IMG/VR virus record: IMGVR_UViG_3300038829_000114
Source: a virus
Taxonomy: Duplodnaviria; Heunggongvirae; Uroviricota; Caudoviricetes
Length of the DNA: 64,000 bases
Direction: 5' to 3' (one strand)
The translations under genes were made by a program, and so were the position numbers. This document shows, in pieces, positions 21,904 through 55,050 of this stretch. Every line of letters begins with the position of its first letter. Position 1 is the first letter of the stretch. The notes under the pieces are model-generated. The model was given only the letters and a program-made list of their open reading frames with translations. It did no database searches and was not told where the DNA came from.

Positions 21904-22221
21904 ATGATTAAGCCAATTAGTCCAGACGATGTTGCTGGTAAAAAAGCAGCGACGATACCTGATGTTGTTTTTGAAGCTATTAATGATCTGATTGTAAAGA
22001 ATTGGGCTGGTACCAGGGCGACTATCCTTCAGAGCAAGATTGTTGAGAGTATTCTTAATAGAGACGATGCTATAACTGAAAAATCTATTTTTGAGCATCG
22101 TTGGTTGGATATTGAAGATATTTATAGGGAGGCTGGTTGGGATGTTAAGTATGACAAACCGGCTTATAACGAGAGCTACTCAGCTACGTTTATTTTTAAG
22201 AAGGTGGGTAAAGAGGAATAG
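21904..22221 (+). CDS. hypothetical protein
   Basis: RBS GAGGAG. Confidence 0.5.
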   Translation: MIKPISPDDVAGKKAATIPDVVFEAINDLIVKNWAGTRATILQSKIVESILNRDDAITEKSIFEHRWLDIEDIYREAGWDVKYDKPAYNESYSATFIFKKVGKEE

Positions 22222-22310
22222 CTCTTATAGAGACCCCTATGTAGGCGTAGTTGCGATATGGTCTATGGGATGGTAAGATAGAGACAACATAAAATAAGGA
22301 TAGAACTACT

Positions 22311-22625
22311 ATGTTTGATAAATTATTTAGTTTGGGGAATGGTTGGAGTGTTTTTTGGAGTGCGAGGCCGGAAATACTATTATGTTCCGTAGGTGTACTG
22401 TTCGTTATTGGTCTATTTACTTCTCCACTGTGGTATGCACGAACACCTTTTAAAAGTAACAGTATGCGTAATATTGAGGCGTCTATTTTAGCTTTTGCGG
22501 GTTCTCTAGTGATCGGGATGTTTTTCTTTTCAGCACTTTCTCCAGCATTATTAGTATCCTGTATAGTGGTTTTTTCGGGGGCTGTTGTTATCAAGCTGGG
22601 CGAAAAGGTGTTTAAAGCATCGTAA
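22311..22625 (+). CDS. membrane protein
   Basis: Three hydrophobic segments. Confidence 0.5.
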   Translation: MFDKLFSLGNGWSVFWSARPEILLCSVGVLFVIGLFTSPLWYARTPFKSNSMRNIEASILAFAGSLVIGMFFFSALSPALLVSCIVVFSGAVVIKLGEKVFKAS

Positions 22626-22711
22626 AGATAGCTCTTATAGAGACACCTATGTAGGTAGATTGTTAGTATTTAAGTAGTGTGGTAAGATAATGTATATAAA
22701 AGAGGTATACA

Positions 22712-23527: not shown

Positions 23528-23609
23528 TAGAGAGACTACAGCCACGAGTAAGTTGCATAAAAAAACAGTTATGATATAATAGTATTACAAACTCTAAAAA
23601 GGAGATAGT

Positions 23610-24236
23610 ATGCCCAAACCGAAACTGAATAAGCCCTTAATTACCAAGTTGATTAAGGAATTGAATAAAAACCCGCTTTTGTATTTACAAGAAGCCTATA
23701 TCACGAAGATAAACATTAATACAGGTTGTGAATATGATGAAGATGAGGATGCCTCCAAGCAAGAGATTGAAGATATTGCAGACCAGCTTACAAGTGGGGA
23801 GAACCATATTGAACTCGCAAAGCGTTTGTTAGAGATTGAACCAGCGAGTACATTTTGTAAAACGGCTTGTTGCTTGGCAGGTACGGTAGCGGTGATGGAA
23901 GCAGGGGAGAATAACGTTATAGGCGGATACTGTGTAGAAATAAAGGGGGATACTTTGGAAATACATGATTTTGCACAAGGAAAATTGGGATTGAGCGTAG
24001 ATGCAGCAAACACTTTATTTGCTGGTGATCCAGAATGTGATTGGCCGGAGCCATGGGCTGAGCGTTGGACCAAAGCTTTAAGAAACTATGGTGGTTATGA
24101 TATTAAAGAATTGAAGAAACTTCGTAAAGCACAAGTTAAGATTGCTTGTGATCTGTTGGAGACTTTGAAAGCAAAAGGTGAGAAGATTCTTTTGGATGTT
24201 GATCATGACCGCCATGCCGACTACAGCTCTCTATAA
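23610..24236 (+). CDS. hypothetical protein, family X (paralogue of 25910..26503)
   Basis: Shared motifs L(I)KELN(K/E)NPLLY and CC(L/I)AGT. Confidence 0.55.
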   Translation: MPKPKLNKPLITKLIKELNKNPLLYLQEAYITKININTGCEYDEDEDASKQEIEDIADQLTSGENHIELAKRLLEIEPASTFCKTACCLAGTVAVMEAGENNVIGGYCVEIKGDTLEIHDFAQGKLGLSVDAANTLFAGDPECDWPEPWAERWTKALRNYGGYDIKELKKLRKAQVKIACDLLETLKAKGEKILLDVDHDRHADYSSL

Positions 24237-24271
24237 TTATATAGAGACTACATAGTTTAAAATAAATATGG

Positions 24272-24772
24272 ATGGGCAAAAACCCTGTGATAAAACCAAA
24301 TGTAATATACAAAAAGATGACTTTGGTTACATGGGGTTGTGGAAATAGGCTAGAGACAACTAAATTCAAGGGTATTAAGAATGGGTTAGGTAACAAGCCT
24401 AAAGATGGTGGTTTGTGGACTTCACCATACCAGTCCGAGAATAGCTGGCGGAAGTGGGGGAAAGCAAATAAATACGGTAATTTTAATAGTAGGATTAAAA
24501 TGCGTTTTGAGGGTTGGTTGTTTGTTGTGGATGAGGAGAGGGATTTAGCTTACTTACCGAGGGAAAAATGGTACCTTAGAAACAATTCTAGTTACCCTTA
24601 TTTAAACTGCGTTAGTTTAGTAGATAGTTGTGTAGATGGAATATGGTTGACAGCGAGGGGGCAACGAGAGACGCATGGGTATTATTTTCGGCGGGATTAC
24701 GACTGGAATCTCTATGGGTGGGATTGTGAGACTGTTTTGCTGTTTAACTTAGATTGTGTGAAGCAGGTTTAA
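24272..24772 (+). CDS. hypothetical protein, family Y (paralogue of 29017..29508)
   Basis: Shared MTLVTWGCG…KPxDGGLWTSPY…WRKWGK…YGWDCETVLLFNLDCV. Confidence 0.55.
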   Translation: MGKNPVIKPNVIYKKMTLVTWGCGNRLETTKFKGIKNGLGNKPKDGGLWTSPYQSENSWRKWGKANKYGNFNSRIKMRFEGWLFVVDEERDLAYLPREKWYLRNNSSYPYLNCVSLVDSCVDGIWLTARGQRETHGYYFRRDYDWNLYGWDCETVLLFNLDCVKQV

Positions 24773-24773
24773 T

Positions 24774-25118
24774 ATGAACTACTGGGAAGAGTGTATAAAA
24801 GAGTCTTTTGATGAAGCTGGGATAGTAGCGACTGATGCCCAGGTTGCCATAGTAGTCTCTTGGGTGGAGGGTGGCCATGAGAACTATGGAATGGCACATG
24901 GTAATGATGTTATAGGGAACCCAAGGGATAGTGAGATAGAGACACTTAAAAAGCAATTGGAGATAGAGAAGGAGAAAAGACCATGCCCTGACTGTAAGGG
25001 TAGTGGGGAAGAGGTGACATATGGCGGTACTCGAATGAGCCGGACAACGTGTTTTAGGTGTAATGGAGAGGGTAAGTGCTTACGGTATAGTGGTCGGGTG
25101 ACTCCGTATTTGACTTGA
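24774..25118 (+). CDS. hypothetical protein with C-terminal zinc ribbon
   Basis: CPDCKGSG…CFRCNGEGKC. Confidence 0.5.
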   Translation: MNYWEECIKESFDEAGIVATDAQVAIVVSWVEGGHENYGMAHGNDVIGNPRDSEIETLKKQLEIEKEKRPCPDCKGSGEEVTYGGTRMSRTTCFRCNGEGKCLRYSGRVTPYLT

Positions 25119-25180
25119 AGATGAGTCTATGTTAGAATAGTCTCTATGGTATATTAGTGATAAATAAGATGGTATAAAAC

Positions 25181-25873
25181 GTGGCAACTAAAAAGAAAAA
25201 GACTAGTAACGTGCTTAAAAACATTACTTTTCACTACAGCGGTGTTGAGGTTGATTATGCAAGACATAGTGACTGTGAAAACCATGGCTGTGGAGATGAG
25301 GGTATTTGCCGATGCTCTACCCTACATGATGTTGAGGTTACGTCAATTGAACCTAAAGATGTCTTGGAACTGGTGTGTTATCAATTCGACATGGATAGAG
25401 ACTCTGATATACTTATCTATGGTATTGATCGTATTCTAAAGGTTCTCAAAGCTTATGAAAAGGATTCATACACAGTCACGATTTGCGGGGGTTACTATGG
25501 GGAAGAGATTGACGGCATATACCTAGAAAACTCAGATATGATCGAAGCTACTATTAAAGAGTTTCTGAGTTTAAGTACACTAAAAAAACAGGTTGAATAT
25601 CTATTACTACTTGAGTATGGACACCTTCTCGATAAGTTAAAAAAGTGTAGCTGGTCTATTAGTGAGGTGCCTACTAAGTCTATTGTTTTAGGTAACACCG
25701 CCCACTACAAGCGATTAGAGACTACTTTGGTTGACAGATATAATACTTATGACCTTATCCGAGGCGTGGTTAAGAAAAACGGTAACAAATACCATTTATA
25801 TGATGGATACCACAGGGTTGCTGCTATGAGTAATGTTGGGGCGAAAAAGATTAAGGTATTGGTTGCGAAATAG
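25181..25873 (+). CDS. ParB/Srx-like nuclease domain protein (GTG start)
   Basis: C-terminal YHLYDGYHRVAAM…KIKVLV (ParB-N DGxHR motif); N-terminal Cys cluster. Confidence 0.55.
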   Translation: MATKKKKTSNVLKNITFHYSGVEVDYARHSDCENHGCGDEGICRCSTLHDVEVTSIEPKDVLELVCYQFDMDRDSDILIYGIDRILKVLKAYEKDSYTVTICGGYYGEEIDGIYLENSDMIEATIKEFLSLSTLKKQVEYLLLLEYGHLLDKLKKCSWSISEVPTKSIVLGNTAHYKRLETTLVDRYNTYDLIRGVVKKNGNKYHLYDGYHRVAAMSNVGAKKIKVLVAK

Positions 25874-25909
25874 AGACTATTCTGTTAATATTATTAAACG
25901 AGGTAAAAC

Positions 25910-26503
25910 ATGGCACTAAACAAGAAACTAATTCAAAAATTGATAAATCATTTGAACGAGAATCCTTTGCTATATGAGCAGAAAGAGTATTTCACTGCGA
26001 TTGATTTAGCTACGGGGAATTATAGGGATTCTAAGCTTAAGTTTCTTAAGCATCAGATTCATGGCCTTGTGGATGCTATGGATAGATGCAAGATAACCCC
26101 ACAGCAAATGGCAGATAAGATTTTAGAGATTACACCTAAAGAAACGGTGTGTGGTTCAGCCTGTTGCATAGCCGGTACTATCTTCTCTATGAAAGCTGAT
26201 AGTAAGGGGGCTAAGCGAGAAGGTTCGGGTGGTGTTAGGCTTGATAACAACATCGTCTCTATTAGCAACTTTGCGGCTAAAGAGTTGGGACTTGTTGGTT
26301 TAGGGGCTGCGGACATTTTGTTTACATGTAACCCAGAAAGTAATTGGCCACAGCCTTATCGTAGTCGTTGGAAAAAAATTCCTTGTATTATGGACTCGTC
26401 TACCCTAAATGATATTCTAAAGATTCGTAAGAAACAGGTAAAGGTTGCTACGGATTTGTTAAAAGACTTGATGGAGAATGGTGAGCAAGTCTTGGTGGGG
26501 TAA
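25910..26503 (+). CDS. hypothetical protein, family X
   Basis: Paralogue of 23610..24236. Confidence 0.55.
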   Translation: MALNKKLIQKLINHLNENPLLYEQKEYFTAIDLATGNYRDSKLKFLKHQIHGLVDAMDRCKITPQQMADKILEITPKETVCGSACCIAGTIFSMKADSKGAKREGSGGVRLDNNIVSISNFAAKELGLVGLGAADILFTCNPESNWPQPYRSRWKKIPCIMDSSTLNDILKIRKKQVKVATDLLKDLMENGEQVLVG

Positions 26504-26576
26504 GTAGTATGAACGACCTGCAACTAGAGACTCCTGTCTGTTTGCATAAATTAAAAACTTATGTTAAACTATAAAA

Positions 26577-26792
26577 ATGAGTAAACAAAACAACACGACT
26601 GCCGACTTGGTTTTGCACCATGATGATAGGTGCGAAGCCAGATTGTGGGATGGTTATTGCAAAGTCTGTTGTATTCACCCTGATATGCAAAGTACAGCTT
26701 TATGGAATTACTGCCCAGTATGTAAGATACCTTTAAACAAATTGACTTGTTCGGCGTGCAAACAAACATTTAAAAGTGATAGAGACTACTAA
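26577..26792 (+). CDS. Cys-rich small protein
   Basis: CEARLWDGYCKVCC…CPVCK…CSACK. Confidence 0.45.
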   Translation: MSKQNNTTADLVLHHDDRCEARLWDGYCKVCCIHPDMQSTALWNYCPVCKIPLNKLTCSACKQTFKSDRDY

Positions 26793-26795
26793 ACC

Positions 26796-27083
26796 ATGAT
26801 AAAATCAGACCAAACAATCAAAGTAATTTTAGCTGCCGGGGATATACCCGATGGTGCTACAGTAACGAAAGTAACGGGTGAGCAGCAATTTACGTTAAAA
26901 CGAAATTTGAAGATTTATGGGGAGCATGGTGTAGAGATTACTAACACATCTGATAAAGTTTTGTTCATGGTCTCTAGTGGTGGTGTAATCAATACAATAG
27001 ATAAAGATAAGATGCTGTGTTGGCTTACTACGCCTAAGTGGTTGTTTGAGGTGGCCAGGGAAGAAGAAATGGAGGATAAATAA
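26796..27083 (+). CDS. hypothetical protein
   Basis: ORF. Confidence 0.5.
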   Translation: MIKSDQTIKVILAAGDIPDGATVTKVTGEQQFTLKRNLKIYGEHGVEITNTSDKVLFMVSSGGVINTIDKDKMLCWLTTPKWLFEVAREEEMEDK

Positions 27084-27084
27084 T

Positions 27085-27732
27085 ATGGAGTTCGTTTGTT
27101 ACATTGCTAAGACTCGTAAAGATAAATACAAGCCTTTTGTTGGTAAGATTGTGGAGAGTGAAGGGGATGATGATTCCTTCATCTTCGCTCTAGGTAATCT
27201 TACTGCGTGGGATACTCTAAAGGGGGCGCGTGAGGTTATGTTAAAAGAGGCTCCAAAAGACGCAAAAATATATCTAAACCCATATAAGGTGACCGATGGT
27301 ATTCTCTGGGTATCTGAGTTAGAGAAGAACGAGCAATTGGTTTATGATGAGGCTCTTGAGATTGCACCAGTAATCCCAGAAAAAGTTATTGAACCTGTTG
27401 TTCGCTGTGATAAGTACAAAGTTTATAGAGACACCTTAACCAAACTAGAGGGGTATGGCCTTTACTATAGCAGCCAAAATTCTGTGTATTTTGTAAAAGA
27501 GGTTGGCGTAAGTCGGTTGGTAAAGTTTACTGTCTATGATCTATTGCGCGGTGAAGTATCTACTCGTAAAAAGAGTGTAACTAAATTTTTACTTGCTGAC
27601 GGCGTTACTTTTGCAAATAAAATCAGCTTAGCTACGCCTGAGATGCTCAGAGTAGTTAGTGATGCTGTTTGGATTGATATTGGTGATTTGGATGCTAAAT
27701 ATAACCCTAACTATGGTAAGGTTTATGCCTAA
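27085..27732 (+). CDS. hypothetical protein
   Basis: RBS GGAGGATAAATAATATG places the start at 27085. Confidence 0.55.
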   Translation: MEFVCYIAKTRKDKYKPFVGKIVESEGDDDSFIFALGNLTAWDTLKGAREVMLKEAPKDAKIYLNPYKVTDGILWVSELEKNEQLVYDEALEIAPVIPEKVIEPVVRCDKYKVYRDTLTKLEGYGLYYSSQNSVYFVKEVGVSRLVKFTVYDLLRGEVSTRKKSVTKFLLADGVTFANKISLATPEMLRVVSDAVWIDIGDLDAKYNPNYGKVYA

Positions 27733-27916
27733 AAAAATAACAAAGACAGTTAAGCGAAGCGAGTTGACTAATCTAAAAATGGTCGCTGGGAATGAGAAGC
27801 GGTACTCTACAGTGATTATAGATGGATACGTTAAGGATTGGGTTGGTTTTGGTTGGGTTACGTTGGACAAAGCAACAGCAGCGGATAAGAAGAAATTTCC
27901 TACCGCTGTTTACTAG
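27725..27916 (+). CDS. hypothetical basic protein
   Basis: ATG overlaps the upstream 3' end. Confidence 0.4.
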   Translation: MPKKITKTVKRSELTNLKMVAGNEKRYSTVIIDGYVKDWVGFGWVTLDKATAADKKKFPTAVY

Positions 27917-28063
27917 AACACGCTAATTTTATTGACAAATTTTAGATAGTGTGTTAAAATGAGTTCAGCACCGGGGGCTTGGGGGTATAAGATAGCTCTT
28001 TTAGAGACACTAAACTACCTGATTTGCAAAATTGAGTAAACCTTGGTAAGATAGAGACACTAT

Positions 28064-35895: not shown

Positions 35896-36687
35896 ATGCG
35901 TTTATTTTTGCTTGCTTTGATTGTTGTTATTGGCGGTGGTTGTTCTACGGTTGCGCCGGACCCTGGTTTTGAGGCCGTTATTGTACATAAGCCTGCCTTT
36001 ATTGGTAAAGGCGGTGTCGATAAAAATACTGTAAAAACAGGACGCACATATACGTGGATCACCTCTGAAAATATTGTGGTGAACATGCAACCACAGCTTT
36101 TCCAATTAAAATTTGATGACTTTATGACTAGTGACGGGGTTCCTTTGGATTTCGATGCAGCAATCCGTTTGCGGGTATCCGACGCTGTTTTGTTGGTGGA
36201 GAAATTTGGGCATAATTGGTACGATAATAACGTAGCAAATGAGTTAGCGCAACAAGCCCGACAAGCCGTGCGTAAACGAGGTTTGAACGAAACAGCTATT
36301 CAAACAACTGCTATTGATGCTATTGATAGCGAAGTTACTGAGAAAATGAAGGCATACTTTCAAACTATCGGACTACCAGTTATGCTTGAAAGTTTTTCTG
36401 TCGGAAAAGCTAATCCACCAGATTCTGTTAAAGACCAACGCATTGCCACTGCTGCACAGCAACAACGTATAATCACCGAACAAGAACGTAAGTTGGCAGA
36501 AGATAAGCGTAAGATGGCTGAAGAGAGTCGGGCTGCTGCTGACAATGCCTACCGTGAAAAAATGAAAATGTCCCCAGACCAGTTTCTTCAGCTTGAAGCT
36601 ATTAAAATGATGAATGAAGTTTGTAATGGTGGCAAATGCACGTTTATCAGTGACTCCGTTACGCCAACTTTTAACGTAAATAAGTGA
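35896..36687 (+). CDS. SPFH/band-7 (stomatin/prohibitin-like) domain lipoprotein
   Basis: Signal peptide plus Cys, then SPFH-like core (…FDAAIRLRVSDAVLLVEKFG…) and a coiled-coil C-terminal region. Confidence 0.65.
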   Translation: MRLFLLALIVVIGGGCSTVAPDPGFEAVIVHKPAFIGKGGVDKNTVKTGRTYTWITSENIVVNMQPQLFQLKFDDFMTSDGVPLDFDAAIRLRVSDAVLLVEKFGHNWYDNNVANELAQQARQAVRKRGLNETAIQTTAIDAIDSEVTEKMKAYFQTIGLPVMLESFSVGKANPPDSVKDQRIATAAQQQRIITEQERKLAEDKRKMAEESRAAADNAYREKMKMSPDQFLQLEAIKMMNEVCNGGKCTFISDSVTPTFNVNK

Positions 36688-37184: not shown

Positions 37185-37598
37185 ATGGGAACACGGGCAG
37201 ACTTTTACATTAAAACTAAGGATAAAGATTCAGACGATTTTGATTACGAGTGGTTAGGTAGTATTGGATGGGACGGATACCCTAGTGGCATAGATAAATC
37301 AATACTGAAGGCCACTAGAATAAAAGATTATCGCATTTTAGTAAAAGATTATATAGTTCAAGAGGGCGGTACTCTGCCTGAGCAAGGATGGCCATGGCCT
37401 TGGAAAACGTCTGCAACAACAGATTATGCCTATATTCTCTACAGAGGTAAGGTTTGGGCTTCTTGCTTTGGCGGGCTATTATTTGATCCGTTAAAGAGAG
37501 AACCAATGCCGCCTGAGTATCCAGATATGTCTGAGATTCAGAAGGTTGCACAAGCAGGTTCCCAACGATCTGGTTTGATAGCTATATCACAGATTTGA
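37185..37598 (+). CDS. hypothetical protein
   Basis: ORF. Confidence 0.5.
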   Translation: MGTRADFYIKTKDKDSDDFDYEWLGSIGWDGYPSGIDKSILKATRIKDYRILVKDYIVQEGGTLPEQGWPWPWKTSATTDYAYILYRGKVWASCFGGLLFDPLKREPMPPEYPDMSEIQKVAQAGSQRSGLIAISQI

Positions 37599-37646
37599 CA
37601 TTAACCAATTAATTTGTTATTATAATACAAAATAAAGGAGATTAGC

Positions 37647-37982
37647 ATGGGTGATCGTGCAAACGTTTTAGTTAAAGCAGATGATAAAGATTCCGGTGTA
37701 TATATCTATACACATTGGTCAGGAGAAGAACTTCCAAAACTTGTCCAAAAAGCATTGGCTAAGGAATGGCGGTGGGATGATGCCCAGTATTTGACTCGTA
37801 TTATCTATGATACAGTTGTTGGAAAAGAGTTTGGTACAGAGACCGGTTTTGGTATCTCAACGCAAGTTGGCGATGGGGATGATCGGGTCATTGAAGTAAA
37901 TTCAGACGCCGAGACCGTTAAACTAAACAAGAAAACCTACTCCTTTCAAGAGTATGTAGATTTAAAAAATCCTAAGTGGTAA
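37647..37982 (+). CDS. hypothetical protein
   Basis: RBS AAAGGAGATTAGCATG. Confidence 0.55.
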   Translation: MGDRANVLVKADDKDSGVYIYTHWSGEELPKLVQKALAKEWRWDDAQYLTRIIYDTVVGKEFGTETGFGISTQVGDGDDRVIEVNSDAETVKLNKKTYSFQEYVDLKNPKW

Positions 37983-37983: not shown

Positions 37984-38241
37984 ATGGCTTTTTTATCAGA
38001 GTTAAAAAACGCTTTGGAGGACGCTCTTGCAGAGGCTAGAAATCTGCCTGAATCTCCACTACGCTCTAAGCTAGAACGGTTAAAAACCGTTTTTGAATTG
38101 TGGTCAACAACCAACACATTTCAAATGCCTGTTAAGGACAGTTTAGAAATTGATAGCTTTAAACATATTCCACCAATTCGTTTAAAAGATGGCGAACCTA
38201 CGGTTGGCGCTATATATGGGAATTTCGACAATGACATCTAA
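37984..38241 (+). CDS. hypothetical protein
   Basis: ORF. Confidence 0.45.
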   Translation: MAFLSELKNALEDALAEARNLPESPLRSKLERLKTVFELWSTTNTFQMPVKDSLEIDSFKHIPPIRLKDGEPTVGAIYGNFDNDI

Positions 38242-38770
38242 CCGGCCAATCATAGAGAATAAGCAACCAACATGGCTGACAAAATCTGAGGGCATAATTT
38301 TTGGAAGCCGTTGGTTACAAGCACCTCTGTATGTTGGACTTATTATAGCTCAGTGTGTTTATGTATTTAAGTTTATAGTAGAGTTGGTACATCTAGTTGG
38401 CTCAGCTAAGACACTGACTGAGAATGAGGTCATGCTATCCGTTCTTGCTTTAGTTGATATTGTTATGATTGCAAACCTGTTATTAATGGTTATTGTCGGC
38501 GGTTATGAAACTTTCGTAAGCCGACTTTATTTAGAGAAACATCCTGACAACCCAGAATGGTTAAGCCACGTTGACGCAGGCATTCTAAAAATAAAATTAG
38601 CTATGTCTCTAATAGGTATATCCTCAATTCATCTACTAAAAACATTTATTAACGTAAACAACATGACTAATTCAGCAATTTTCTGGCAAGTGGTTATTCA
38701 TGTAGTATTTATTTTTTCAGCTTATTTTCTCGCCAAAGTAGAACAAGTAACAAACCAAAAAGGATCATAG
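38189..38770 (+). CDS. YqhA/UPF0114-family membrane protein (the true start may be an internal ATG near 38231)
   Basis: FGSRWLQAPLYVGLIIAQCVYVFKFIVELVHLV is similar to the E. coli YqhA N-terminus ASRWLLAPVYFGL…. Confidence 0.6.
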   Translation: MANLRLALYMGISTMTSNRPIIENKQPTWLTKSEGIIFGSRWLQAPLYVGLIIAQCVYVFKFIVELVHLVGSAKTLTENEVMLSVLALVDIVMIANLLLMVIVGGYETFVSRLYLEKHPDNPEWLSHVDAGILKIKLAMSLIGISSIHLLKTFINVNNMTNSAIFWQVVIHVVFIFSAYFLAKVEQVTNQKGS

Positions 38771-38771: not shown

Positions 38772-39701
38772 ATGTGGGACAACATTCGTAGAATTAATTC
38801 GTCTGATAAAAATGTAGCAAAGTTTGTTTTTGAGATGGGTACTGCTGTGGCGGAATCAGTGCTATACAAATACCCTACCTATGAAGATCGAACGGTTATT
38901 TGTTGCTCAACAATGAGTGGTTGTCCAATTGGTTGTCGCTTTTGTGGTGCAGGTGATAACTTTGTTCGATCATTAAATGCCGATGAGATTATATCGCAGC
39001 CAGTATACTTGCTAGATCAAACAGGTGTTGACCCAAACGCTATGACGCGGCTACAGATTATGTTTATGTCTATGGGTGAACCTATGCTTAATCTAAAGCA
39101 CCTTATCCCGGCGCTGGAGACACTGTATGCCAAATATCCAAAGGCAGCATTGCTTGTATCCACATCTGGTCCTGATATTGATTACAGCGATTTTAATGAG
39201 GTATCTAAAGCCATCCCAACAATCGGTCTACAATTCTCTGTGCATGAATCTACAGATGAAGCTAGAGATAAGTTGATCCCGTTTAGTAAGAAGCTGTCTT
39301 TGACACAAATTTCTACTGTAGGCAAGGATTGGTATAAAGCTACTGGCCGTCAACCGTTCTTTAACTATTGCGTACATGAAAACAACAATACATATGCAGA
39401 TGTAAACCGATTGTCTCATTTGTTTGACCCGTCTGTTTGGCAAGCTACAATATCTGTGATTTGTGAGCGTAACGAATCCATTGCTGCCGCGAACGAACGC
39501 CAGCGGGGGCTTGCCTCTGACTTTATGAGTAAGATGTTAAATAATAACTACTCTGTTCGTATGTTTGATCCTGCTGGACAAGATGATATTGGCGGCGGCT
39601 GCGGGCAGCTTTGGTTTGTGCAAGACTGGATGAAGAAAAATCCACACTTGGCCAAGCCATCTGTCGGTTATGGATTGCCGATGGTACATACCCCGGCGTA
39701 A
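38772..39701 (+). CDS. RlmN/Cfr-family radical-SAM RNA methyltransferase-like protein
   Basis: CX3CX2C (CPIGCRFC). Also MSMGEPMLN, STSG, S(V)HESTDEARDKLIP and the C-terminal GGGCGQL conserved-Cys motif, colinear with RlmN. Confidence 0.7.
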   Translation: MWDNIRRINSSDKNVAKFVFEMGTAVAESVLYKYPTYEDRTVICCSTMSGCPIGCRFCGAGDNFVRSLNADEIISQPVYLLDQTGVDPNAMTRLQIMFMSMGEPMLNLKHLIPALETLYAKYPKAALLVSTSGPDIDYSDFNEVSKAIPTIGLQFSVHESTDEARDKLIPFSKKLSLTQISTVGKDWYKATGRQPFFNYCVHENNNTYADVNRLSHLFDPSVWQATISVICERNESIAAANERQRGLASDFMSKMLNNNYSVRMFDPAGQDDIGGGCGQLWFVQDWMKKNPHLAKPSVGYGLPMVHTPA

Positions 39702-40813: not shown

Positions 40814-41449
40814 ATGATTTGGATTATTAGCGGCGCTATTCTTATTTTTGGAGTTGTGATTTGGGCAATGGCTGTATCGACAGAGCCTGAAAAAGTAACG
40901 GACTATGATTTGGTTAAGAGAATTAATAGGATTGACTTTAAGCCTATTGAAAAACTGCTTGAGAAGAAGAAAAATTGGGATCGAGCTAAAATTGACATCA
41001 ACATCGTTGAGTATAAAAAATTCTTGTTTTTGGTTGGTGCGAACTTAGGGCACACAATCGTACCGTTTAATGATGACGTAGATGAAGTTTGGCATATGCA
41101 CTTGCTAGACTCCGCAAAATACCGCCTGGATTGTATTAATGTCTTTGGACGCATTATTGACCACAATCCTCACTTATATGTTGGGATACCTAAACAGGTT
41201 GATGGACATAAAAAAACACAGCAGCTTTATAAAAACATGTCTCCTTCAGTTAGGGCTACATTAGACTCCCGCCATTATAACAGCAGGAGAAATACCACTG
41301 ACGACTACAGTACAACCTATATTCCAAGTAGCTGTAGTTCTGACAGTCCTAGCAAGGCAGCGTCATGTGGTGCCTCTTGTAACAGCGGCGCTTCTTGTGG
41401 TGGAGCATCTTGCGGAGGTGGGGGTTGCGGCGGCGGTTGCGGTGCATAA
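40814..41449 (+). CDS. DUF1399 (glycine-rich-domain protein)-like membrane-anchored protein with a Cys/Gly/Ser-rich C-terminal tail
   Basis: VPFNDDVDEVWHMHLLDSAKYRLDC…IDHNP resembles the DUF1399 core (DIDLIWHTHQL…Y..DC). Tail SCGASCNSGASCGGASCGGGGCGGGCGA. Confidence 0.55.
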   Translation: MIWIISGAILIFGVVIWAMAVSTEPEKVTDYDLVKRINRIDFKPIEKLLEKKKNWDRAKIDINIVEYKKFLFLVGANLGHTIVPFNDDVDEVWHMHLLDSAKYRLDCINVFGRIIDHNPHLYVGIPKQVDGHKKTQQLYKNMSPSVRATLDSRHYNSRRNTTDDYSTTYIPSSCSSDSPSKAASCGASCNSGASCGGASCGGGGCGGGCGA

Positions 41450-42448: not shown

Positions 42449-42478
42449 TTGACAACAATAGTTATTATCTGATATAAT
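42449..42478 (+). promoter_or_regulatory. sigma70-like promoter TTGACA-18-TATAAT for the tRNA-Arg pair
   Basis: -35 at 42449-54 and -10 at 42473-78; the first tRNA begins 9 nt later. Confidence 0.55.
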
Positions 42479-42486
42479 AATTGTAG

Positions 42487-42555
42487 GCCCATGGTAATAG
42501 GATACAGGCGAATCTTCTAAATTTGCCGTTGGACGTTCGAGTCGTCTCGTGGGCA
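42487..42555 (+). tRNA. tRNA-Arg (anticodon TCT), compact with a short D-arm
   Basis: Acceptor GCCCATG/CGTGGGC (one G·U pair), anticodon stem CGAAT/ATTTG, loop CTTCTAA, T-arm GGACG-TTCGAGT-CGTCT. Confidence 0.6.
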
Positions 42556-46919: not shown

Positions 46920-47123
46920 ATGACACTCCCAAAAGTATATGTTTTTATCGGGGCTGACGGATACGTGCTGTCGGTCAGTAGTGACAAACCCGTTGAGGTT
47001 ATTCAAGTTGACTACTCGCCAATGGCTACTCTTGACAAGCATGCTACACTAAAGCTTGAACAAGAAATGCGAAAAAATACAGTGTTTACAAAATCGTTTT
47101 ACGGAGATACTAAAAATGTCTGA
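46920..47123 (+). CDS. hypothetical protein
   Basis: ORF. Confidence 0.45.
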   Translation: MTLPKVYVFIGADGYVLSVSSDKPVEVIQVDYSPMATLDKHATLKLEQEMRKNTVFTKSFYGDTKNV

Positions 47124-48159
47124 ATGGAAAGTTAGCGTTGAAGCTATTGAAATATTTGACCACCCCAATGCAGACCGCATGCAAATTGGGAAAGTTGGTA
47201 CTTATCAGGTAGTTGTGCAGAAAAACTTGTACAAGACTGGGGATATTGTTGCGTTTGCGCCGGAAAAGTCTATTCTTCCACAATCTTTGAAAGAGCCTTG
47301 GGAAAAATACCTTACCGGCACTAACAAAGATCGGGTCAAGGGAGTGCGCTTACGTGGGGAATTTTCGTGTGGTATTATCATCCCGTTGACTACTGTCCAA
47401 GAAAAACTTGGCTATGTTCCTGAAGTCGGCGTAGACATTTCAGAAAAACTCTCAATCCGTAAATTTGAGCCACCTGTCCCTGTCGCTTTAATGGGCAGCG
47501 TTCAGAAGTTTCCAGAGTTTATCAACAACACTTTGGCCGGTGCTCATGACTGTGAACACTTTAGAACATATGTAAACGAGTTTGTTGCCGGTGAACGTGT
47601 AATAGTACAAGAAAAATTGCATGGTAGCCAGTTAATTTGTACTGCCGATGCCGGGGGTAATAACCCAACAATAACGTCTAAAGGTTTGCGTAAAGACGAT
47701 CTTTGTATTAAAGAGAGCGAAGCCAACTCTTACTGGCAAGCTTTCCATAACTGCAAACTACAAGATGTGCTGTTCGAGGCGGCTTTAACACACTCCCCGA
47801 CTAAAGTTATACGAGTGTTTGGTGAATTGGTGCCTTGCCAAAAGGGTTATGCCTATGGCTTGACAAAACCTGAAGTTCGTATTTTTGACATCCGGGTTGA
47901 TGGGCAATCTATTCCGTATGACCAAGCTCCGCCAAGCGCAAAGAAAATCTGGGTTCCATTGCTCTATGACGGGCCTTTTGAAGAAGTTAAGATACTGCCT
48001 CTTTGTGAGGGTAACGAGCAGGTCTCTGGCAAAGAATACCATATCCGTGAGGGCTGTGTTGTTTCTCCATATATAGACAGGTATGCTAAGGACCGAACAC
48101 GCCTGCGTTTGAAGGTTATTAATCCTAAGTACAAGGATGAAGACGATGCGTTCAACTAA
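47116..48159 (+). CDS. Rnl2-family (KxHG) RNA ligase-like nucleotidyltransferase with an N-terminal extra domain
   Basis: Motif I QEKLHGSQ (T4 Rnl2 has EKIHGTN), motif IV REGCVV, motif V LKVINPKYK. ATG 47116 overlaps the previous stop. Confidence 0.6.
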   Translation: MSEWKVSVEAIEIFDHPNADRMQIGKVGTYQVVVQKNLYKTGDIVAFAPEKSILPQSLKEPWEKYLTGTNKDRVKGVRLRGEFSCGIIIPLTTVQEKLGYVPEVGVDISEKLSIRKFEPPVPVALMGSVQKFPEFINNTLAGAHDCEHFRTYVNEFVAGERVIVQEKLHGSQLICTADAGGNNPTITSKGLRKDDLCIKESEANSYWQAFHNCKLQDVLFEAALTHSPTKVIRVFGELVPCQKGYAYGLTKPEVRIFDIRVDGQSIPYDQAPPSAKKIWVPLLYDGPFEEVKILPLCEGNEQVSGKEYHIREGCVVSPYIDRYAKDRTRLRLKVINPKYKDEDDAFN

Positions 48160-49254: not shown

Positions 49255-50898
49255 ATGCCTAGCGAATCAAGAACTCTACAAACAAAGATTAACGGAGTAC
49301 AGATTTACAAGTCTTCGTTCAATCCAAAAACTGGAATGATCGTCAGAGAAACTGTTGAAGGTCTTGATGACTTTGACATGACTCTTACACGATATGTTGG
49401 CTGGAAAAGCGGGGAGTTAGCCCCAACATTTGAACGTGGTGAGTATTTTTGGAATTACGATAAAGACAGAGAGTTTGGAACCAAGGCTTTTCAAGGTTTT
49501 TCGAGATCGAGAACAGAGAAAGCGTTTTCTGTGGTGCCTGAGACTGTAGATATTAAGATCACAGAATGGTGCGATTTTGGTTGTTCTTACTGCTACATGG
49601 ATAGTACAACTACAGCCAAAAAGACAGACGCTATCACACTTGTAAAAAATATTGTGAAAGGCTTCGACCATGCCCCGTATCAATTTGCGTTCGGTGGGGG
49701 CGAACCTTGTTCGTACAAAGACCTCCCAAAGCTTTTGAAAGTAACACGGGAGCTTGGGGTTGTACCTAATTTTACAACCGCTGGTCATATTTTTCGAGAA
49801 GATGTGATTAAAGCTGCAAACAAATATTGTGGCGGCGTTGCTTTAACATACCACCGTTTTAAGGGAGTTGACTTTTTCAAGGAAACGTATGCTAAATGGC
49901 GTGGCGCTCTTAATATCCAAATGAATATTCATGTTATCGCTGATGATGATGTTATTAAGTCGCTGTCTGAGTTAGAGACTATTCAGGCCGAGCTTGGTGG
50001 TACATTTAATATTGTTTTGTTGGCTTACTATCCAAACGTTGGTCGTGCTGATTATAGCCGCGTTATGGATAAGAAAGTTTTTAACGATACCTTACCATCT
50101 GTTATTCGCAAGATGCAACGCAGGCCAGCGGATTTTAGAATTGCTTTTTCTGAGGGCTTACTACCTTATTTCAACTCTCGTGATATTGTGGACATGCAAA
50201 TGGCTACGACACAAGAGGGCAGATTTTCTTGTTATATTGACAACTATGGTCGTATGAGTACCAGTAGCTTTTCAAAGCCTGATATTAAGACACCGACTGT
50301 TTTTGATAAGAGAGCACAAGAGCTTTGGAATAGCCTACAGATGCCGTGGCAGAAACAATCTATCTGTTACGGTTGTCCAAAGTCTTCTAAGTGTAACGCT
50401 CCTGATCTAACACACATGTTGTACTGTGCGTACTCTCCTCTAAACAAAGGTGGAGACCACATTAACGATTACAATCCTTATAATGTTTCAGATCGGCGCA
50501 ACCCAAACAGATTTAACACACAGATTACCGCTATTGGTAGTTTTGTAACGAACTCGTCTTCGGTTATTTGTGCGTTTCCAAAAGAAGTTTTAGACAGCCC
50601 GCAGGTTAGGGCGGTCATTGAAAAATACGGTTTCGATTTGGACCACGTTGGAGATGTTTGGTATCGTGGGTCTTGTGGGTCAATTGCTTCATCTGCGGCT
50701 AAAAAAAGACTCTTAAAAAGTGAGTTGAGTTCGGAAGAATATGGGGAACGTGTTGCTGGCCAAATTGACGTGGACGATGGTAATGTCTATGTTGTGTATG
50801 GCGATGAATATACATCGACAGAGACAATTTTCCTCGATCTTTTAAAAGAAGTTTTGGGCGGAGAGTTGAAATATGTTGTCCATGATGATTTTAACTAA
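49255..50898 (+). CDS. radical-SAM enzyme with SPASM/twitch-like C-terminal Cys cluster (547 aa)
   Basis: CX3CX2C at aa 106-113 (CDFGCSYC), then FAFGGGEP. Late cluster CYGCPKSSKCN…YCAY. RBS ACGGAG. Confidence 0.75.
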   Translation: MPSESRTLQTKINGVQIYKSSFNPKTGMIVRETVEGLDDFDMTLTRYVGWKSGELAPTFERGEYFWNYDKDREFGTKAFQGFSRSRTEKAFSVVPETVDIKITEWCDFGCSYCYMDSTTTAKKTDAITLVKNIVKGFDHAPYQFAFGGGEPCSYKDLPKLLKVTRELGVVPNFTTAGHIFREDVIKAANKYCGGVALTYHRFKGVDFFKETYAKWRGALNIQMNIHVIADDDVIKSLSELETIQAELGGTFNIVLLAYYPNVGRADYSRVMDKKVFNDTLPSVIRKMQRRPADFRIAFSEGLLPYFNSRDIVDMQMATTQEGRFSCYIDNYGRMSTSSFSKPDIKTPTVFDKRAQELWNSLQMPWQKQSICYGCPKSSKCNAPDLTHMLYCAYSPLNKGGDHINDYNPYNVSDRRNPNRFNTQITAIGSFVTNSSSVICAFPKEVLDSPQVRAVIEKYGFDLDHVGDVWYRGSCGSIASSAAKKRLLKSELSSEEYGERVAGQIDVDDGNVYVVYGDEYTSTETIFLDLLKEVLGGELKYVVHDDFN

Positions 50899-51521
50899 TG
50901 ATTAGATTTTTGGGCGAACTTCCGAGAGAATGTTATATTGCCGTGTCTGGTGGTCCTGATAGCATGGCTGTGTTAGATTTCTTGGCGCATGATGGAAAAC
51001 GAGATATTACTGTACTACACGTAAATCACGGAACTGCGTTTGGTAACTTAGAGGGTATGCCGGTAACAGGAAGATACTGTGACAGGAACAGAATTAAGTG
51101 GTCGAACACTTTTATTGATACACAGCCGGAGTCTAATAAAGAAAATTACTGGCGGGAAAAGAGATATGAATTTTTTAATAAGTTTACAGATAAGCCACTA
51201 ATTACATGCCACACGCTTGATGATTGTATTGAGACCTGGTTTTTTGGTGCCTGTCATGGAACACCTAAACTAATCCCATATCGTAGAGGACATATTATTA
51301 GACCGTTCTTAGTGACTCCGAAAAACGAGCTTGTTAGGTGGTGCGATGATCATGGCGTCCCATTTGCTGTTGACCCAAGTAACTCAGACCCGGCCTACAT
51401 GCGGTCGTTAATCCGTACAGAAATGGTACCAACAGTTTTAAAAGTAAACCCTGGTATCAGTAAGGTTATAAAGCGCAAAGTGGAAGAAGACTTTGCAGCT
51501 ACAGAAACGTGTGCTGTTTAA
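50898..51521 (+). CDS. tilS: tRNA(Ile)-lysidine synthetase (TilS) catalytic-domain-like PP-loop ATPase
   Basis: PP-loop SGGPDS. Also VLHVNHG, HTLDDCIETWFF, IIRPFLV…DPSN…Y.R..IR, colinear with the TilS N-terminal domain. ATGA overlap with the rSAM gene. Confidence 0.65.
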   Translation: MIRFLGELPRECYIAVSGGPDSMAVLDFLAHDGKRDITVLHVNHGTAFGNLEGMPVTGRYCDRNRIKWSNTFIDTQPESNKENYWREKRYEFFNKFTDKPLITCHTLDDCIETWFFGACHGTPKLIPYRRGHIIRPFLVTPKNELVRWCDDHGVPFAVDPSNSDPAYMRSLIRTEMVPTVLKVNPGISKVIKRKVEEDFAATETCAV

Positions 51522-51993: not shown

Positions 51994-54900
51994 TTAGTAA
52001 ACAACGGTCTCTTTACCGAAAAGAAGTTCGTATATATCTTCTGGAATCTGGCGTTTGTATTTACGGGCAATTTTCATAGCCAACACACCCTGTTTAGGAG
52101 TAAGTTGTTGGAGCAAGCCAAGTTTTTTACCAATGTCTGCATCTAATTTATTAAAACCCATTCCATCTAACTCCCTAGCTCCGTCGCAGTATCCAGCAAG
52201 CAGTCGAATAGCAATATGAGCAGCTTTCAATTGGGCATCAGTAATCTTAACAGCCTCTTCTTCAAGCTCTTTGCGATCTAACTTGATTGGTTCTGGAACA
52301 GGAATGATAGGCTGTGATCGGGTAGTCTCTAAGTCTTCATCAAGAGCTTTGTCAATAATCTCTTGTTTTTCAATAATAGTCTTAGCCATGGTTGCGTCAA
52401 TAGAGCCTTCCAAAACCAAGTGTTGAACTAATACTGGGGTCATTTTTGTAACGTGACGAACGCGATCCTCTGCTTGAGAAACGTTGCCTGGAACCCAATC
52501 TTCTTCAATCATTAGAATATGGCTTGATACCGCCAAATTAATACCTACCCCGGCAGCACCAATTGTTCCAATAAACAGGTTGCAAGTAGGATCGTTTTGA
52601 AACCGCTCAATCTCTTCCTGACGCTTGGTTACAGGAGTATCTCCAGTAATTACAGCAGCATTAGGAAACTCAGCCCGAATAATAGAGACTACCTCTTTGT
52701 GGTGAGCAAACACAACAAGTTTATAATTAGGGTCGTTGTCATCAAAAATATCTGAGATATAGTCAACAACCAGCGGAGCCTTGGCGATAGCTGTCTCTCT
52801 ACGAACTGCCGAGATTTCTTCAAAAGACAGCTTAACACCATCTTGTAAAGATTTTACAGCATTTGCATATTCAGTTGGATCATCTGACACCTTGGCTAAT
52901 TCAACAGCAGCTTTAAGAGAGTCTAAACGTTCTGTATATTGAGACTCTTTTTTAAGAGCTTTTAGGCATGTTTTATCAGCAGGTATTTCGATAACCTGAC
53001 GCTGCTTGAGAGGCATTTCTGGGAACACTTCTTCAAATGTACGCCGGATCATAATAGAGGCGCGGAGTTTTGTTTGAAGCTCATCTAGGTTTGAAGCACC
53101 GTCATAATGATGGCCATATTGATCTGTATAGCCATTGCAGTAGCGTTTACTGAAATAGTAGAAAGATTTCCAGGTATTTGAATCAAGCGAATTGACCAAC
53201 GTCCACAATTCTTTCGGACGGTTTACAATAGGCGTACCTGTCATGTAAATCTTTTTCTTGGCTGGAATAGGTTTGATTTCCCATTCATATGTTTTTGGGG
53301 CCAACTTACCCAAAATATTCTGGGTTCTTTTTGTTTTATAATTTTTACAGTTAGAAACCAACACCCCGTTGGCAAAATAATTATTATTATCCGCTATCTC
53401 TATGTTGTAAACAAATTTATTTTCTCCACCACTAATTCTAAATTTTCCAATACTTCCTTGTTCTTGAATCGAACAACTCTCCACCCTAGAAAATTTAGTA
53501 TAGACTCTTTCCGTTTGTCCAGAAATCTCCACTTTTTTGTGTCGTGGCTTCTTCCATCTATCTCTACTGCTAACATTTTCTCTGGAATTCCTATATCTAC
53601 TTTGTAGCAGTGAGGAAGACTTGGAAATTTTCCTTTTGCTGGAGACGTTTGAATTATATACTCTGTGTTTTCCATTAAATTTAGCTTTTCCGCTAAAAGT
53701 TTTTGAGGAACCGTAAGCTGGCCGTTCCCACCGCGACTTAAAAAGGTTCTCCCTACCATTTTCTTCCGCATTTTTTCTACTGATTCTGGGTTCGACATTG
53801 GGTTGTTTTTTTTCATTCTTTCCGATGATTTTGGGTTTGGCTTTCCTGTAATAGCTGCCACCGCTTTTTTTATAGCTTTTCTCGAATGATCTCGTCGTCC
53901 TGGCAACGTCATCATCCACACACCACGACAATGGTTTGAACAAAATCTTCTTTTGTAAATCCCCTTTGAATAGTGAGGTTTTACTAAAAACTGCTTTTTG
54001 CAGGTTTCGCACTCCAAGCTTATTTTTGGCTTCAAAGTTGCCAACCGTATTTTTTCTCTCACTTCTGGTTGAGAATTCGTCCACTTCGCGGAACATTTTA
54101 GAGAACAAAATCTTCGAGTGTTTTTCCCTAGCTTTTCTGCGGTAAAAATCTTTTGGCAAAAACCACAGGTTTTCTCTATTTTTGATCTTCCGCGCTTCGA
54201 CATAATCTTGCCTTGTTAGTGAATAAATTTTATGGTTAGATGTACAACCAAATTCCCCATACTTATGTTTTACAGACACTAAATCTTCGTACAAAGGATT
54301 AGAAAATCTGGTTAGTATATCTTTATATTCAAGACAATTTTTATTATGATTAAAGGATAACACTTTTAAGCTGAGATTTTTTGTTACAATATCCCCTATT
54401 TTTTTTGTACCCTTATCAGTATAGACTTCAGTATCATATGGAAAACAATAATGGGCTTCGTCTAGGATTAACAAATCCCAATCTATGCCATCAATTATAG
54501 TCTTATGTCTGGACACTAAATCATAATTTATAATGACAATATCAGTATCTGGGAAGGTGTCCCCCGTGACTACACCTATATTTCGTTTTGTAACTAACCA
54601 TTTGTTGGCTTCGTTTCTCCAATTGAGCTTCACAGTTGCTGGGCAAATTATAAGAATTTTACGAATGGTTTGTACGTTGTTGATAATACCAAGAGCTTGA
54701 ATAGTCTTCCCAAGTCGCATAGCATCAGCTAAGAGAATGTTTGGCTTGGCGATACCAAAAGCAATGCCAGCTTTTTGATAGGGATAGTATTCTAAACCTT
54801 TGGGTCTGATAAAATCTACAGCCGATTCGACGGCTTGGGACATCTCGATAGTTTTATAGAACTCTTCTAAACGCTTTTTTACATCATCAGAAGCATAATT

Positions 54901-55050
54901 AACGAGTTTGTAAGCTCTATCAGCATCGTAGGTGTACCAGTATTTTTGCGCCCCGTCCCACCAGAAATCGGCGGATTTGGGGATATGTTTCTCAGAATAC
55001 TGGGAAACAACATAATAGCGGCGTTTGATATCGTCGTACTTTAATTCCAT
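51994..55050 (-). CDS. SNF2-family DEAH-box helicase interrupted by an in-frame intein (1018-aa precursor; about 652 aa after splicing)
   Basis: GKT Walker A, LILDEAH motif II immediately followed by a Cys; C-terminal helicase motifs (TGTPIVN, FAHH, QAEDRVRHV). Confidence 0.8.
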   Translation of the reverse strand: MELKYDDIKRRYYVVSQYSEKHIPKSADFWWDGAQKYWYTYDADRAYKLVNYASDDVKKRLEEFYKTIEMSQAVESAVDFIRPKGLEYYPYQKAGIAFGIAKPNILLADAMRLGKTIQALGIINNVQTIRKILIICPATVKLNWRNEANKWLVTKRNIGVVTGDTFPDTDIVIINYDLVSRHKTIIDGIDWDLLILDEAHYCFPYDTEVYTDKGTKKIGDIVTKNLSLKVLSFNHNKNCLEYKDILTRFSNPLYEDLVSVKHKYGEFGCTSNHKIYSLTRQDYVEARKIKNRENLWFLPKDFYRRKAREKHSKILFSKMFREVDEFSTRSERKNTVGNFEAKNKLGVRNLQKAVFSKTSLFKGDLQKKILFKPLSWCVDDDVARTTRSFEKSYKKSGGSYYRKAKPKIIGKNEKKQPNVEPRISRKNAEENGRENLFKSRWERPAYGSSKTFSGKAKFNGKHRVYNSNVSSKRKISKSSSLLQSRYRNSRENVSSRDRWKKPRHKKVEISGQTERVYTKFSRVESCSIQEQGSIGKFRISGGENKFVYNIEIADNNNYFANGVLVSNCKNYKTKRTQNILGKLAPKTYEWEIKPIPAKKKIYMTGTPIVNRPKELWTLVNSLDSNTWKSFYYFSKRYCNGYTDQYGHHYDGASNLDELQTKLRASIMIRRTFEEVFPEMPLKQRQVIEIPADKTCLKALKKESQYTERLDSLKAAVELAKVSDDPTEYANAVKSLQDGVKLSFEEISAVRRETAIAKAPLVVDYISDIFDDNDPNYKLVVFAHHKEVVSIIRAEFPNAAVITGDTPVTKRQEEIERFQNDPTCNLFIGTIGAAGVGINLAVSSHILMIEEDWVPGNVSQAEDRVRHVTKMTPVLVQHLVLEGSIDATMAKTIIEKQEIIDKALDEDLETTRSQPIIPVPEPIKLDRKELEEEAVKITDAQLKAAHIAIRLLAGYCDGARELDGMGFNKLDADIGKKLGLLQQLTPKQGVLAMKIARKYKRQIPEDIYELLFGKETVVY
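53350..54447 (-). mobile_element. intein (366 aa) inserted in helicase motif II
   Basis: N-terminal block CFPYDTEV…TSNH (TxxH); C-terminal blocks VYNIEIADNNNYFANGVLVSN followed by the extein Cys. The central 380 codons are open but low-complexity K/R-rich. Confidence 0.65.
53400..54203 (-). mobile_element. homing-endonuclease gene nested inside the intein but in a different reading frame: 2x Zn-ribbon, NUMOD3-like repeats, C-terminal DUF559/Vsr-like PD-(D/E)xK nuclease
   Basis: Own SD (AAGG) 8 nt before the ATG. Motifs RRFCSLKCSAKW / RRFCSNHCRGVW and AVEIDGRSHD…GWRVVRF. Frame offset from the intein confirmed by codon phase (55050 vs 54203). Confidence 0.6.

Follow-up and report, generated by a model that had tools for sequence, protein, structure and literature searches.

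A short, mostly phage-borne clade of the RlmN/Cfr radical-SAM superfamily lacks RNA-binding features and recurs beside NAD+ salvage genes

We analysed a stretch of 64,000 nucleotides from a Caudoviricetes virus (IMG/VR record IMGVR_UViG_3300038829_000114; hereafter the window), focusing on a plus-strand open reading frame (ORF) at 38772..39701 that runs from ATG to stop and encodes 309 amino acids. The product, here called the rSAM protein, is a predicted class-A radical S-adenosylmethionine (SAM) methyltransferase of the RlmN/Cfr superfamily. It is short, lacks the N-terminal domain of those enzymes and belongs to a family that recurs beside genes for the salvage of nicotinamide adenine dinucleotide (NAD+). 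An AAGGA-type ribosome-binding site lies about 9 nt 5′ of the ATG. Immediately upstream is a gene for a UPF0114/TIGR00645 (YqhA-like) membrane protein (38189..38770, +; Pfam 1.8e-36; NCBIfam 192.8 bits against a cutoff of 144.4), with a single base between its stop codon and the rSAM ATG. Further upstream, a sigma-70-like promoter match (37595..37623, +; TTGACA-17-TATTAT with an extended TG), which is a match to consensus only, could drive the string of genes 37647...39701.

An earlier sequence-only reading had recognised a phage-encoded RlmN/Cfr-superfamily homologue at this locus, and the ORF and all of the motifs it named are present at exactly 38772-39701. The radical-SAM [4Fe-4S] motif CX3CX2C is C51-P-I-G-C55-R-F-C58 (38922..38945, +), and its three cysteines are invariant in 45 close family members. 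The counterpart of the SAM-binding ‘MGMGEP’ motif of RlmN is M99-S-M-G-E-P104 (39066..39083, +), within a segment, Q95-P104, that is invariant family-wide. ‘STSG’ occupies residues 130-133, and ‘SVHESTDEARDKLIP’, at residues 156-170, corresponds to the SxHxxxDExRDxxxP motif. Towards the C terminus, alignment places C277 of G274-G-G-C277-G-Q-L280 (39591..39611, +) at RlmN C355 and Cfr C338, the cysteine that carries the methyl group. The phmmer alignment likewise identifies C44 (codon 38901..38903, +) as the equivalent of RlmN C118 and Cfr C105, the cysteine that resolves the crosslink between enzyme and substrate. C44 is invariant in the 45 close members and is a cysteine in 24 of 32 broader members and in all 11 canonical enzymes. 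With both C44 and C277 retained, the loss of the second catalytic cysteine that would have spoken against the superfamily assignment is not seen.

Three extra cysteines, C45, C200 and C231 (codons 38904-38906, 39369-39371 and 39462-39464), are also invariant in the 45 closest members. They are absent from canonical RlmN and Cfr, and more distant short forms have I, V or N at these positions. An auxiliary Fe-S cluster on these residues was considered as a family feature and rejected, as the cysteines are missing in the wider short clade.

Profile scores, pairwise searches and predicted fold agree with the motifs. The best NCBIfam models are those for RlmN (1.5e-28), followed by the Cfr models (~1e-19 to 1e-21). 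A phmmer search of PDB sequences matches residues 16-280 to residues 93-358 of Escherichia coli RlmN (3rf9; E = 6e-18), with C44 over C118 and C277 over C355. The general radical-SAM model PF04055 gives 23.9 bits, under the Pfam gathering score of 29.5; a precomputed PF04055 hit is present in most close homologues. An AlphaFold2 model built from an alignment of 45 family members has a mean pLDDT (predicted local distance difference test) of 90. The top Foldseek matches of this model in the PDB are the RlmN-like protein 6FZ6 of Sphaerobacter, E. coli RlmN and Cfr, with template-modelling (TM) scores of ~0.6-0.74, and other radical-SAM folds are ten orders of magnitude worse in E-value. Sequence and predicted fold together thus identify the rSAM protein as a member of the RlmN/Cfr radical-SAM superfamily, and no placement in an unrelated radical-SAM family emerged. 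This assignment is not new at the superfamily level, because automated annotation already provides it: the JGI label on the protein is 23S rRNA (adenine2503-C2)-methyltransferase, and the record of Stenotrophomonas phage ANB28 names its homologue RlmN.

The closest characterised comparator is RlmN itself (TIGR00048; PDB 3RF9, 5HR7), a dual-specificity methyltransferase that forms 2-methyladenosine (m2A) at A2503 of 23S rRNA and at A37 of tRNA. The rSAM protein shares with it the CX3CX2C core, the β-sheet extension before the core, the cysteine pair C118/C355 (C44/C277), MGMGEP-like and STSG motifs, E105 (E28) and R114 (R40), with a Foldseek TM score of ~0.7. Cfr (TIGR04432, NF000424; PDB 9P0P) forms 8-methyladenosine at A2503 and confers PhLOPSA (phenicol, lincosamide, oxazolidinone, pleuromutilin and streptogramin A) resistance; the rSAM protein has in common with it the superfamily, the fold and the residues of the two-cysteine mechanism.

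Beyond these shared elements the protein departs from both enzymes. Identity to RlmN is only ~20-24%, and every curated RlmN or Cfr cutoff is missed by a factor of 3-8: RlmN model TIGR00048 gives 99.8 bits against a cutoff of 290, NF008396 gives 76 bits against 633, and the Cfr models TIGR04432, NF000424 and NF011024, with cutoffs of 468-550, give 69-76 bits. The analysis bears out the shortened N terminus, compared with bacterial RlmN, that the sequence-only reading had described. Alignment begins at about RlmN residue 75-93, and a Pfam search finds no hit in the rSAM protein to PF21016 (RlmN_N), the HhH2 RNA-binding N-domain whose role in rRNA binding has been described (PMC13001441). A canonical relative recovered by the same homologue search (P0251) does have a PF21016 hit. 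Three homologues with N-terminal extensions (P0121, P0122 and P0126) have no Pfam domain in those extensions and hence no RlmN_N.

Using two structural papers on Cfr (PMC13001441; bioRxiv 2025.09.18.677109), we mapped RNA-contact residues, which include contacts to the RNA backbone and to the target ribose, onto the alignment. E. coli R206, R207 and R344 (Cfr R184, R185 and R327) are replaced by A125, A126 and F265/D266, and N307 (Cfr N288) is replaced by T226/S228. The short family conserves these replacements, whereas 9-11 of the 11 canonical enzymes have R or N at the positions concerned. The R344 position is the clearest, with Arg in 11/11 canonical enzymes and F/Y or D/N in the short family. 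HMMER and MAFFT alignments differ by one register at two of the sites, and neither places an Arg or Asn there. The segment around R344 in RlmN (R344-K-T-R-G-D-D-I) and R327 in Cfr (R327-S-Q-F), which touches the target adenosine (residue roles in Cfr per PMC13001441), is replaced by a family-specific loop, F265-D-P-A-G-Q-D-D-I273 (39564..39590, +). The short family is also acidic, with a median isoelectric point (pI) of 5.4 as against 7.1 for the equivalent core of E. coli RlmN, and, unlike RlmN, it has a conserved C-terminal tail of its own (W281...H306-x-P308).

Neighbour-joining trees on 259 core columns, with 100 bootstraps, separate canonical RlmN with its long N terminus, together with Cfr, from all short forms in 100/100 replicates. 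A clade of Cfr, Cfr(C) and Cfr(D) that excludes the rSAM protein has equal support (100/100). A comparison with the RlmN and Cfr clades therefore leaves the protein outside both. Given the missed cutoffs, the absent N-domain, the replaced contact residues, the change in charge and the tree, the full methyl-transfer machinery has been kept and the features that hold RNA have been lost. By these sequence comparisons the rSAM protein is neither RlmN nor Cfr and belongs to a distinct, short, mostly phage-borne clade, which does not support its earlier reading as an RlmN or Cfr enzyme acting on A2503 of 23S rRNA and A37 of tRNA. Ribosome methylation and a role in antibiotic resistance are both improbable. 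The nearest architectural parallels are short COG0820-type phage radical-SAM proteins (A0A6J5RTK8 of an uncultured Caudovirales phage and B3FJU2 of Pseudomonas phage 201phi2-1), which are truncated in the same way and have the same fold in BFVD predicted structures (TM 0.6-0.78) but only 17-22% identity.

Cfr-type C8 methylation of A2503, which would give PhLOPSA resistance to the infected cell or lysogen, is highly improbable. The common superfamily, the presence of both cysteines and E-values of ~1e-19 to 1e-21 with Cfr models are in its favour, but these matches reach only 69-76 bits where 468-550 are needed, the protein falls outside a Cfr clade that is monophyletic in every bootstrap, and it lacks the N-domain that in Cfr anchors the H90-H92 junction. 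Cfr Q329, reported to be important for C8-specific methylation (bioRxiv 2025.09.18.677109), is replaced by P267/A268 in the rSAM protein and by P/A in the family, and R184, R185, R327 and N288 are missing as well. Moreover, no member of the short family occurs among 72,556 plasmids, a set that readily yields cfr, cfr(C) and cfr(D); the matches there are canonical rlmN and true cfr genes with <30% identity. The suggestion that the gene confers Cfr-type antibiotic resistance consequently has no specific support.

The short family is large. A database search gives 5543 homologues of the rSAM protein, of which the best 120 are all ~310 aa long and ~67-74% identical; given this number and the uniform length and identity of the best 120, the gene is, as judged from sequence, under strong purifying selection. 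Cultured phages that carry a member include Stenotrophomonas phages ANB28 and BUCTxx99, Xanthomonas phage JGB6, Salmonella phage Arash, Aeromonas phage Ahp1 and several Vibrio phages of 130-140 kb. Members also occur in IMG/VR, on 218 viral contigs of which many span 100-420 kb. Others lie on contigs of Mycolicibacterium, Saccharibacteria, many Proteobacteria, Firmicutes and Bacteroidota and two archaeal metagenome-assembled genomes (MAGs). Identity within the family is about 60-74% across phyla. Such high values are unusual and suggest that all these hosts share the substrate, that the family has recently spread among phages, or both. The rSAM protein has no match among the PADLOC models and hence is no component of a known defence system. 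When 20 kb and 7.5 kb of the window were compared with 50,697 phage records by near and distant nucleotide searches, nothing matched, so the phage has no close sequenced relative in that set.

Two further observations concern family members and relatives. In BUCTxx99 and JGB6 the homologous rSAM region is annotated ‘prohibitin family protein’, which is probably a mislabel or refers to an adjoining SPFH gene. A distant short RlmN-like protein with 33% identity (P0217, 759 aa; L163 724-3003) is fused to an HD/HD_assoc dGTPase-like domain, a second case, besides the Nudix fusion described below, of a partner domain that hydrolyses nucleotides.

To characterise the genomic context of the family we called ORFs within ±10 kb of the homologue in 152 loci and clustered the resulting 12,532 ORFs all-vs-all. 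This clustering revealed no universal neighbour or conserved partner protein, and the largest clusters are alternative-frame ORFs inside the conserved rSAM gene itself. What does recur is NAD+ metabolism. Of 148 loci, 22 have a gene for an enzyme of NAD biosynthesis or salvage no more than 600 nt from the homologue; the count rises to 28 at a distance of 3 kb and to 31 at 10 kb. At the 3 kb distance, such genes occur in 15/85 phage or viral loci and in 13/63 genome or MAG loci. Of the 31 NAD-linked loci, 22 therefore have the NAD gene within 600 nt, as against ~6% expected if such genes were spread uniformly over ±10 kb. NAD+ reconstitution pathway 1 (NARP1) is found in ~4.3% of phage genomes and NARP2 is rare (PMC13464706), so the adjacency is far above background. 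The NAD-linked loci are scattered over the family tree and include some of the nearest relatives of the window protein, at 66-72% identity.

The neighbours confirmed by Pfam are NAMPT (NAMPT_N + NAPRTase), NAPRTase, NAD synthase (NadE), NadA, an NMNAT-like cytidylyltransferase, a bifunctional NMNAT-Nudix protein, Nudix-NrtR and a PRPP-synthetase-like (Prs-like) protein. A cluster of nicotinamidase-type isochorismatases was recognised by eye, and a Pfam Isochorismatase match is recorded for the homologue at locus L160. A further set of loci contains genes for ADP-ribose processing (macro, NADAR).

Gene order in these loci is often tight. On viral contigs it is NMNAT-Nudix / NAMPT / rSAM. In a genome contig of Ornithinimicrobium murale (L109) the order is pncB-pncA-rSAM-nrtR with a 4-nt overlap at every junction, and four Saccharibacteria MAGs have the arrangement metG | pncB pncA | rSAM | nrtR nadE | tatD. 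A Woesearchaeota MAG carries pncB / pncA / nadA / rSAM ... nadE / Nudix / prs. In one case the link extends to the protein itself: P0141 (468 aa) is a fusion of rSAM and NUDIX domains, encoded directly upstream of NAMPT and NMNAT genes. In gene context the closest known systems are NARP2 (NAMPT + NMNAT) and the bacterial NrtR-regulated Preiss-Handler operons (PncA, PncB, NadD, NadE), to components of which rSAM orthologues are adjoined, translationally coupled or fused in ~15-20% of loci. Neither pathway needs a methyl-transfer step for making NAD+. The NARP papers searched describe no radical-SAM enzyme as a pathway component, and our literature searches found no paper that ties RlmN-like or radical-SAM enzymes to NARP, NrtR or NAMPT clusters, or to phages in this sense. 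Accessory enzymes do occur in such operons according to the extended-NARP1 preprint, where the one described is a phosphatase.

One NAD-linked viral contig (L014; IMG/VR contig 3300020045_011377) also encodes, at 5293-6186 and directly upstream of the NMNAT-Nudix, NAMPT and rSAM genes, the quinolinate synthase NadA (Pfam 1e-83), an Fe-S enzyme of the de novo NAD pathway in a phage.

The loss of the RNA-binding domain and Arg contacts, the acidity of the protein and the occurrence of orthologues in NAD+ clusters and in a fusion argue for an adenine or pyridine nucleotide as substrate. We estimate a probability of roughly 40% that the product is an active C-methyltransferase of radical-SAM class A that acts on a nucleotide of NAD+ or ADP-ribose metabolism. 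This proposal builds on homology, on the fold, on a complete set of catalytic residues, on the absence of RNA-binding features and on the statistics of neighbourhood and fusion; that the enzyme is active, which substrate it uses and what role it plays in physiology are its predictions. The short clade would have kept RlmN/Cfr chemistry and been retargeted away from rRNA. A first SAM would methylate C277. A second SAM, bound at the [4Fe-4S] cluster held by C51, C55 and C58, would then be cleaved to a 5′-deoxyadenosyl radical, which would take a hydrogen from the Cys-bound methyl. The resulting methylene radical would join an electron-poor sp2 carbon of the substrate, and C44 would resolve the covalent adduct. 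We infer this ping-pong mechanism, which is that of RlmN and Cfr, from the conserved residues. Candidate acceptors would be C2 or C8 of adenine or the pyridinium ring in an NAD-type molecule, or else an NAD-linked RNA end, and the enzyme would be accessory to phage NAD+ reconstitution or counter-defence rather than a methylase of A2503 in 23S rRNA.

Several points weigh against this proposal. We know of no class-A radical-SAM methyltransferase that acts on a free nucleotide, and the consumption of two SAM per methyl group, expected by analogy with RlmN and Cfr, seems ill suited to an abundant metabolite pool. The window itself, 64 kb of a 107.5-kb contig, contains no NAD gene, and at ~80% of the related loci there is none within 10 kb of the homologue. 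Because accessory and counter-defence genes of phages tend to sit together in islands, the association may reflect co-transfer rather than co-function; genes for a transposase and for a CCA-adding enzyme border the NAD operon of O. murale, and several of the ‘cellular’ NAD-linked loci may be prophages or islands. Genes of RNA repair are also found nearby. In the window, Rnl1 and Rnl5 ligase genes lie 5.5-8 kb downstream of the rSAM gene. In a prophage-like region of Mycolicibacterium an RNA ligase gene is ~500 nt upstream of the homologue, and the homologue is followed by a PNKP gene whose start overlaps its stop codon. At L160 the homologue has PTH2 and RlaP genes nearby.

These last neighbours bear on a different account, in which the protein is an RlmN-like RNA adenine C-methyltransferase that makes m2A at position 37 of tRNA or modifies another tRNA or rRNA site or the phage tRNAs. 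It would then belong to a set of phage functions for maintaining, repairing or immunising the translation apparatus, for example against anticodon nucleases, and would bind RNA without an HhH2 domain or through a partner. We regard this account as possible but rather doubtful. All characterised homologues are RNA enzymes; the protein retains R40 (RlmN R114), R193 and K17; and, besides the RNA-repair and tRNA-processing genes just described, the window contains a TilS N-domain protein and tRNAs. The homologue of Stenotrophomonas phage ANB28 lies inside a tRNA array, and tRNA genes occur within 10 kb of the homologue in 35/151 loci. On the other side, the N-domain and R206, R207, R344 and N307 have been lost from a protein that is acidic, RNA ligases occur near the homologue in only ~9/148 loci, clustering over the 152 loci reveals no conserved partner, and both the tight embedding in NAD operons and the Nudix fusion would be left unexplained. 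Among RNA targets, tRNA is more likely than 23S rRNA. RlmN and Cfr work on naked 23S rRNA (PMC13001441), which would be expected to be scarce during lytic infection.

The window had been read as holding an extensive toolkit directed at the translation apparatus, but the link of the rSAM gene to such a toolkit is weak. Its UPF0114, SPFH, 547-aa radical-SAM and TilS-N genes occur beside homologues in 0 of about 150 loci and were rejected as functional partners of the rSAM protein. The other toolkit genes thus never recur, so a conserved translation toolkit is not seen and NAD+ salvage genes recur in its place. As for the individual genes, the Rnl1-like ligase of the proposed ligase pair stands, but the supposed Rnl2-like ligase (47056-48159, +) is better described as a DRB0094-type, Rnl5-like RNA ligase (TIGR02306, 249.8 bits against a cutoff of 151; PHA02142 OB-fold domain). 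The TilS-like gene has the PP-loop N-domain (TIGR02432, 107.5 bits against a cutoff of 93.6) and is not a full TilS. Instead of four tRNAs, ARAGORN calls three and Rfam two.

Methylation of another macromolecule, such as a site-specific adenine in phage DNA or a protein, or radical chemistry besides methyl transfer, is an improbable explanation. Around 15 loci have SSB, DnaQ-like, primase-helicase and YqaJ neighbours and the distant relative P0217 is fused to an HD/dGTPase-like domain, but these replication-gene neighbours seemingly come from one related set of phage contigs and a Pfam search detected no DNA-binding domain. The close family also has the additional conserved cysteines C45, C200 and C231. 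These are not conserved in the wider short clade, however, and the strict retention of both methyl-transfer cysteines speaks for methyl transfer.

Several other features of the window deserve description. A gene for an SPFH/Band-7 protein (35896-36687, +) lies 2 kb upstream of the rSAM gene. Between the two, small adjoining ORFs at 37185-37598 and 37647-37982 (both +) have products with similar starts, MGTRADFYIKTKDKD... and MGDRANVLVKADDKD..., suggesting a tandem duplication; neither has a PADLOC hit. Downstream, a 211-aa protein (40814-41449, +), for which there is a weak GRDP-like match, ends in a tail that consists almost wholly of Cys, Gly, Ser and Ala (...CGASCNSGASCGGASCGGGGCGGGCGA). 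Within the interval 42449-42555 (+) ARAGORN calls a 69-nt tRNA-Arg(TCT), which has no Rfam hit at the gathering score. A perfect 12/12 sigma-70 promoter match with an extended TG (42449-42478) lies ahead of it. Around homologues elsewhere, tRNA-Arg(TCT) is the tRNA seen most often (8 times in the set of loci). A tRNA(CAT) is present at 2714-2789.

The 547-aa radical-SAM protein (49255-50898, +) matches viperin/SPASM-type models only in its N-terminal cluster region. Its gene overlaps by one base that of the 207-aa TilS PP-loop N-domain protein (50898-51521, +), so that the two look like a translationally coupled pair and are possibly a tRNA C34-type modification module. The sole large minus-strand gene in that part of the window encodes a 1018-aa SNF2-family helicase (51994-55050, -) with an intein-like insertion between the SNF2 N-lobe and Helicase_C (Intein_splicing at residues 212-567). 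Across ~8 kb (20001-28000) the GC skew is strongly positive, at 0.24-0.31, compared with ~0.0-0.15 in most of the window, and the GC content is unchanged.

What is new here is a distinct and very widespread short clade of the RlmN/Cfr superfamily that has lost its means of binding RNA and turns up repeatedly in NAD+ salvage clusters. The label 23S rRNA (adenine2503-C2)-methyltransferase is probably wrong for this family of thousands across phages of many phyla, and such labels encourage readers to credit phages with genes for ribosome modification or Cfr-like resistance. If a tRNA were the target, the family would represent a domain-minimised RNA methyltransferase with a new mode of recognition. 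Returning to the proposal of a substrate from NAD+ or ADP-ribose metabolism, it is conceivable, if somewhat unlikely, that the family provides the first class-A radical-SAM methyltransferase of a nucleotide cofactor or its breakdown product (NAD+, ADP-ribose or a nicotinamide mononucleotide (NMN)-type molecule) and a third, as yet unrecognised component of phage NAD+ reconstitution. The rebuilt NAD pool or its intermediates would then be made unusable by host NADase effectors, or an NAD-derived immune signal would be neutralised. A functional NAD link would add a new enzyme class to the NAD+ arms race between phages and bacteria and would extend RlmN/Cfr chemistry to a new type of substrate.

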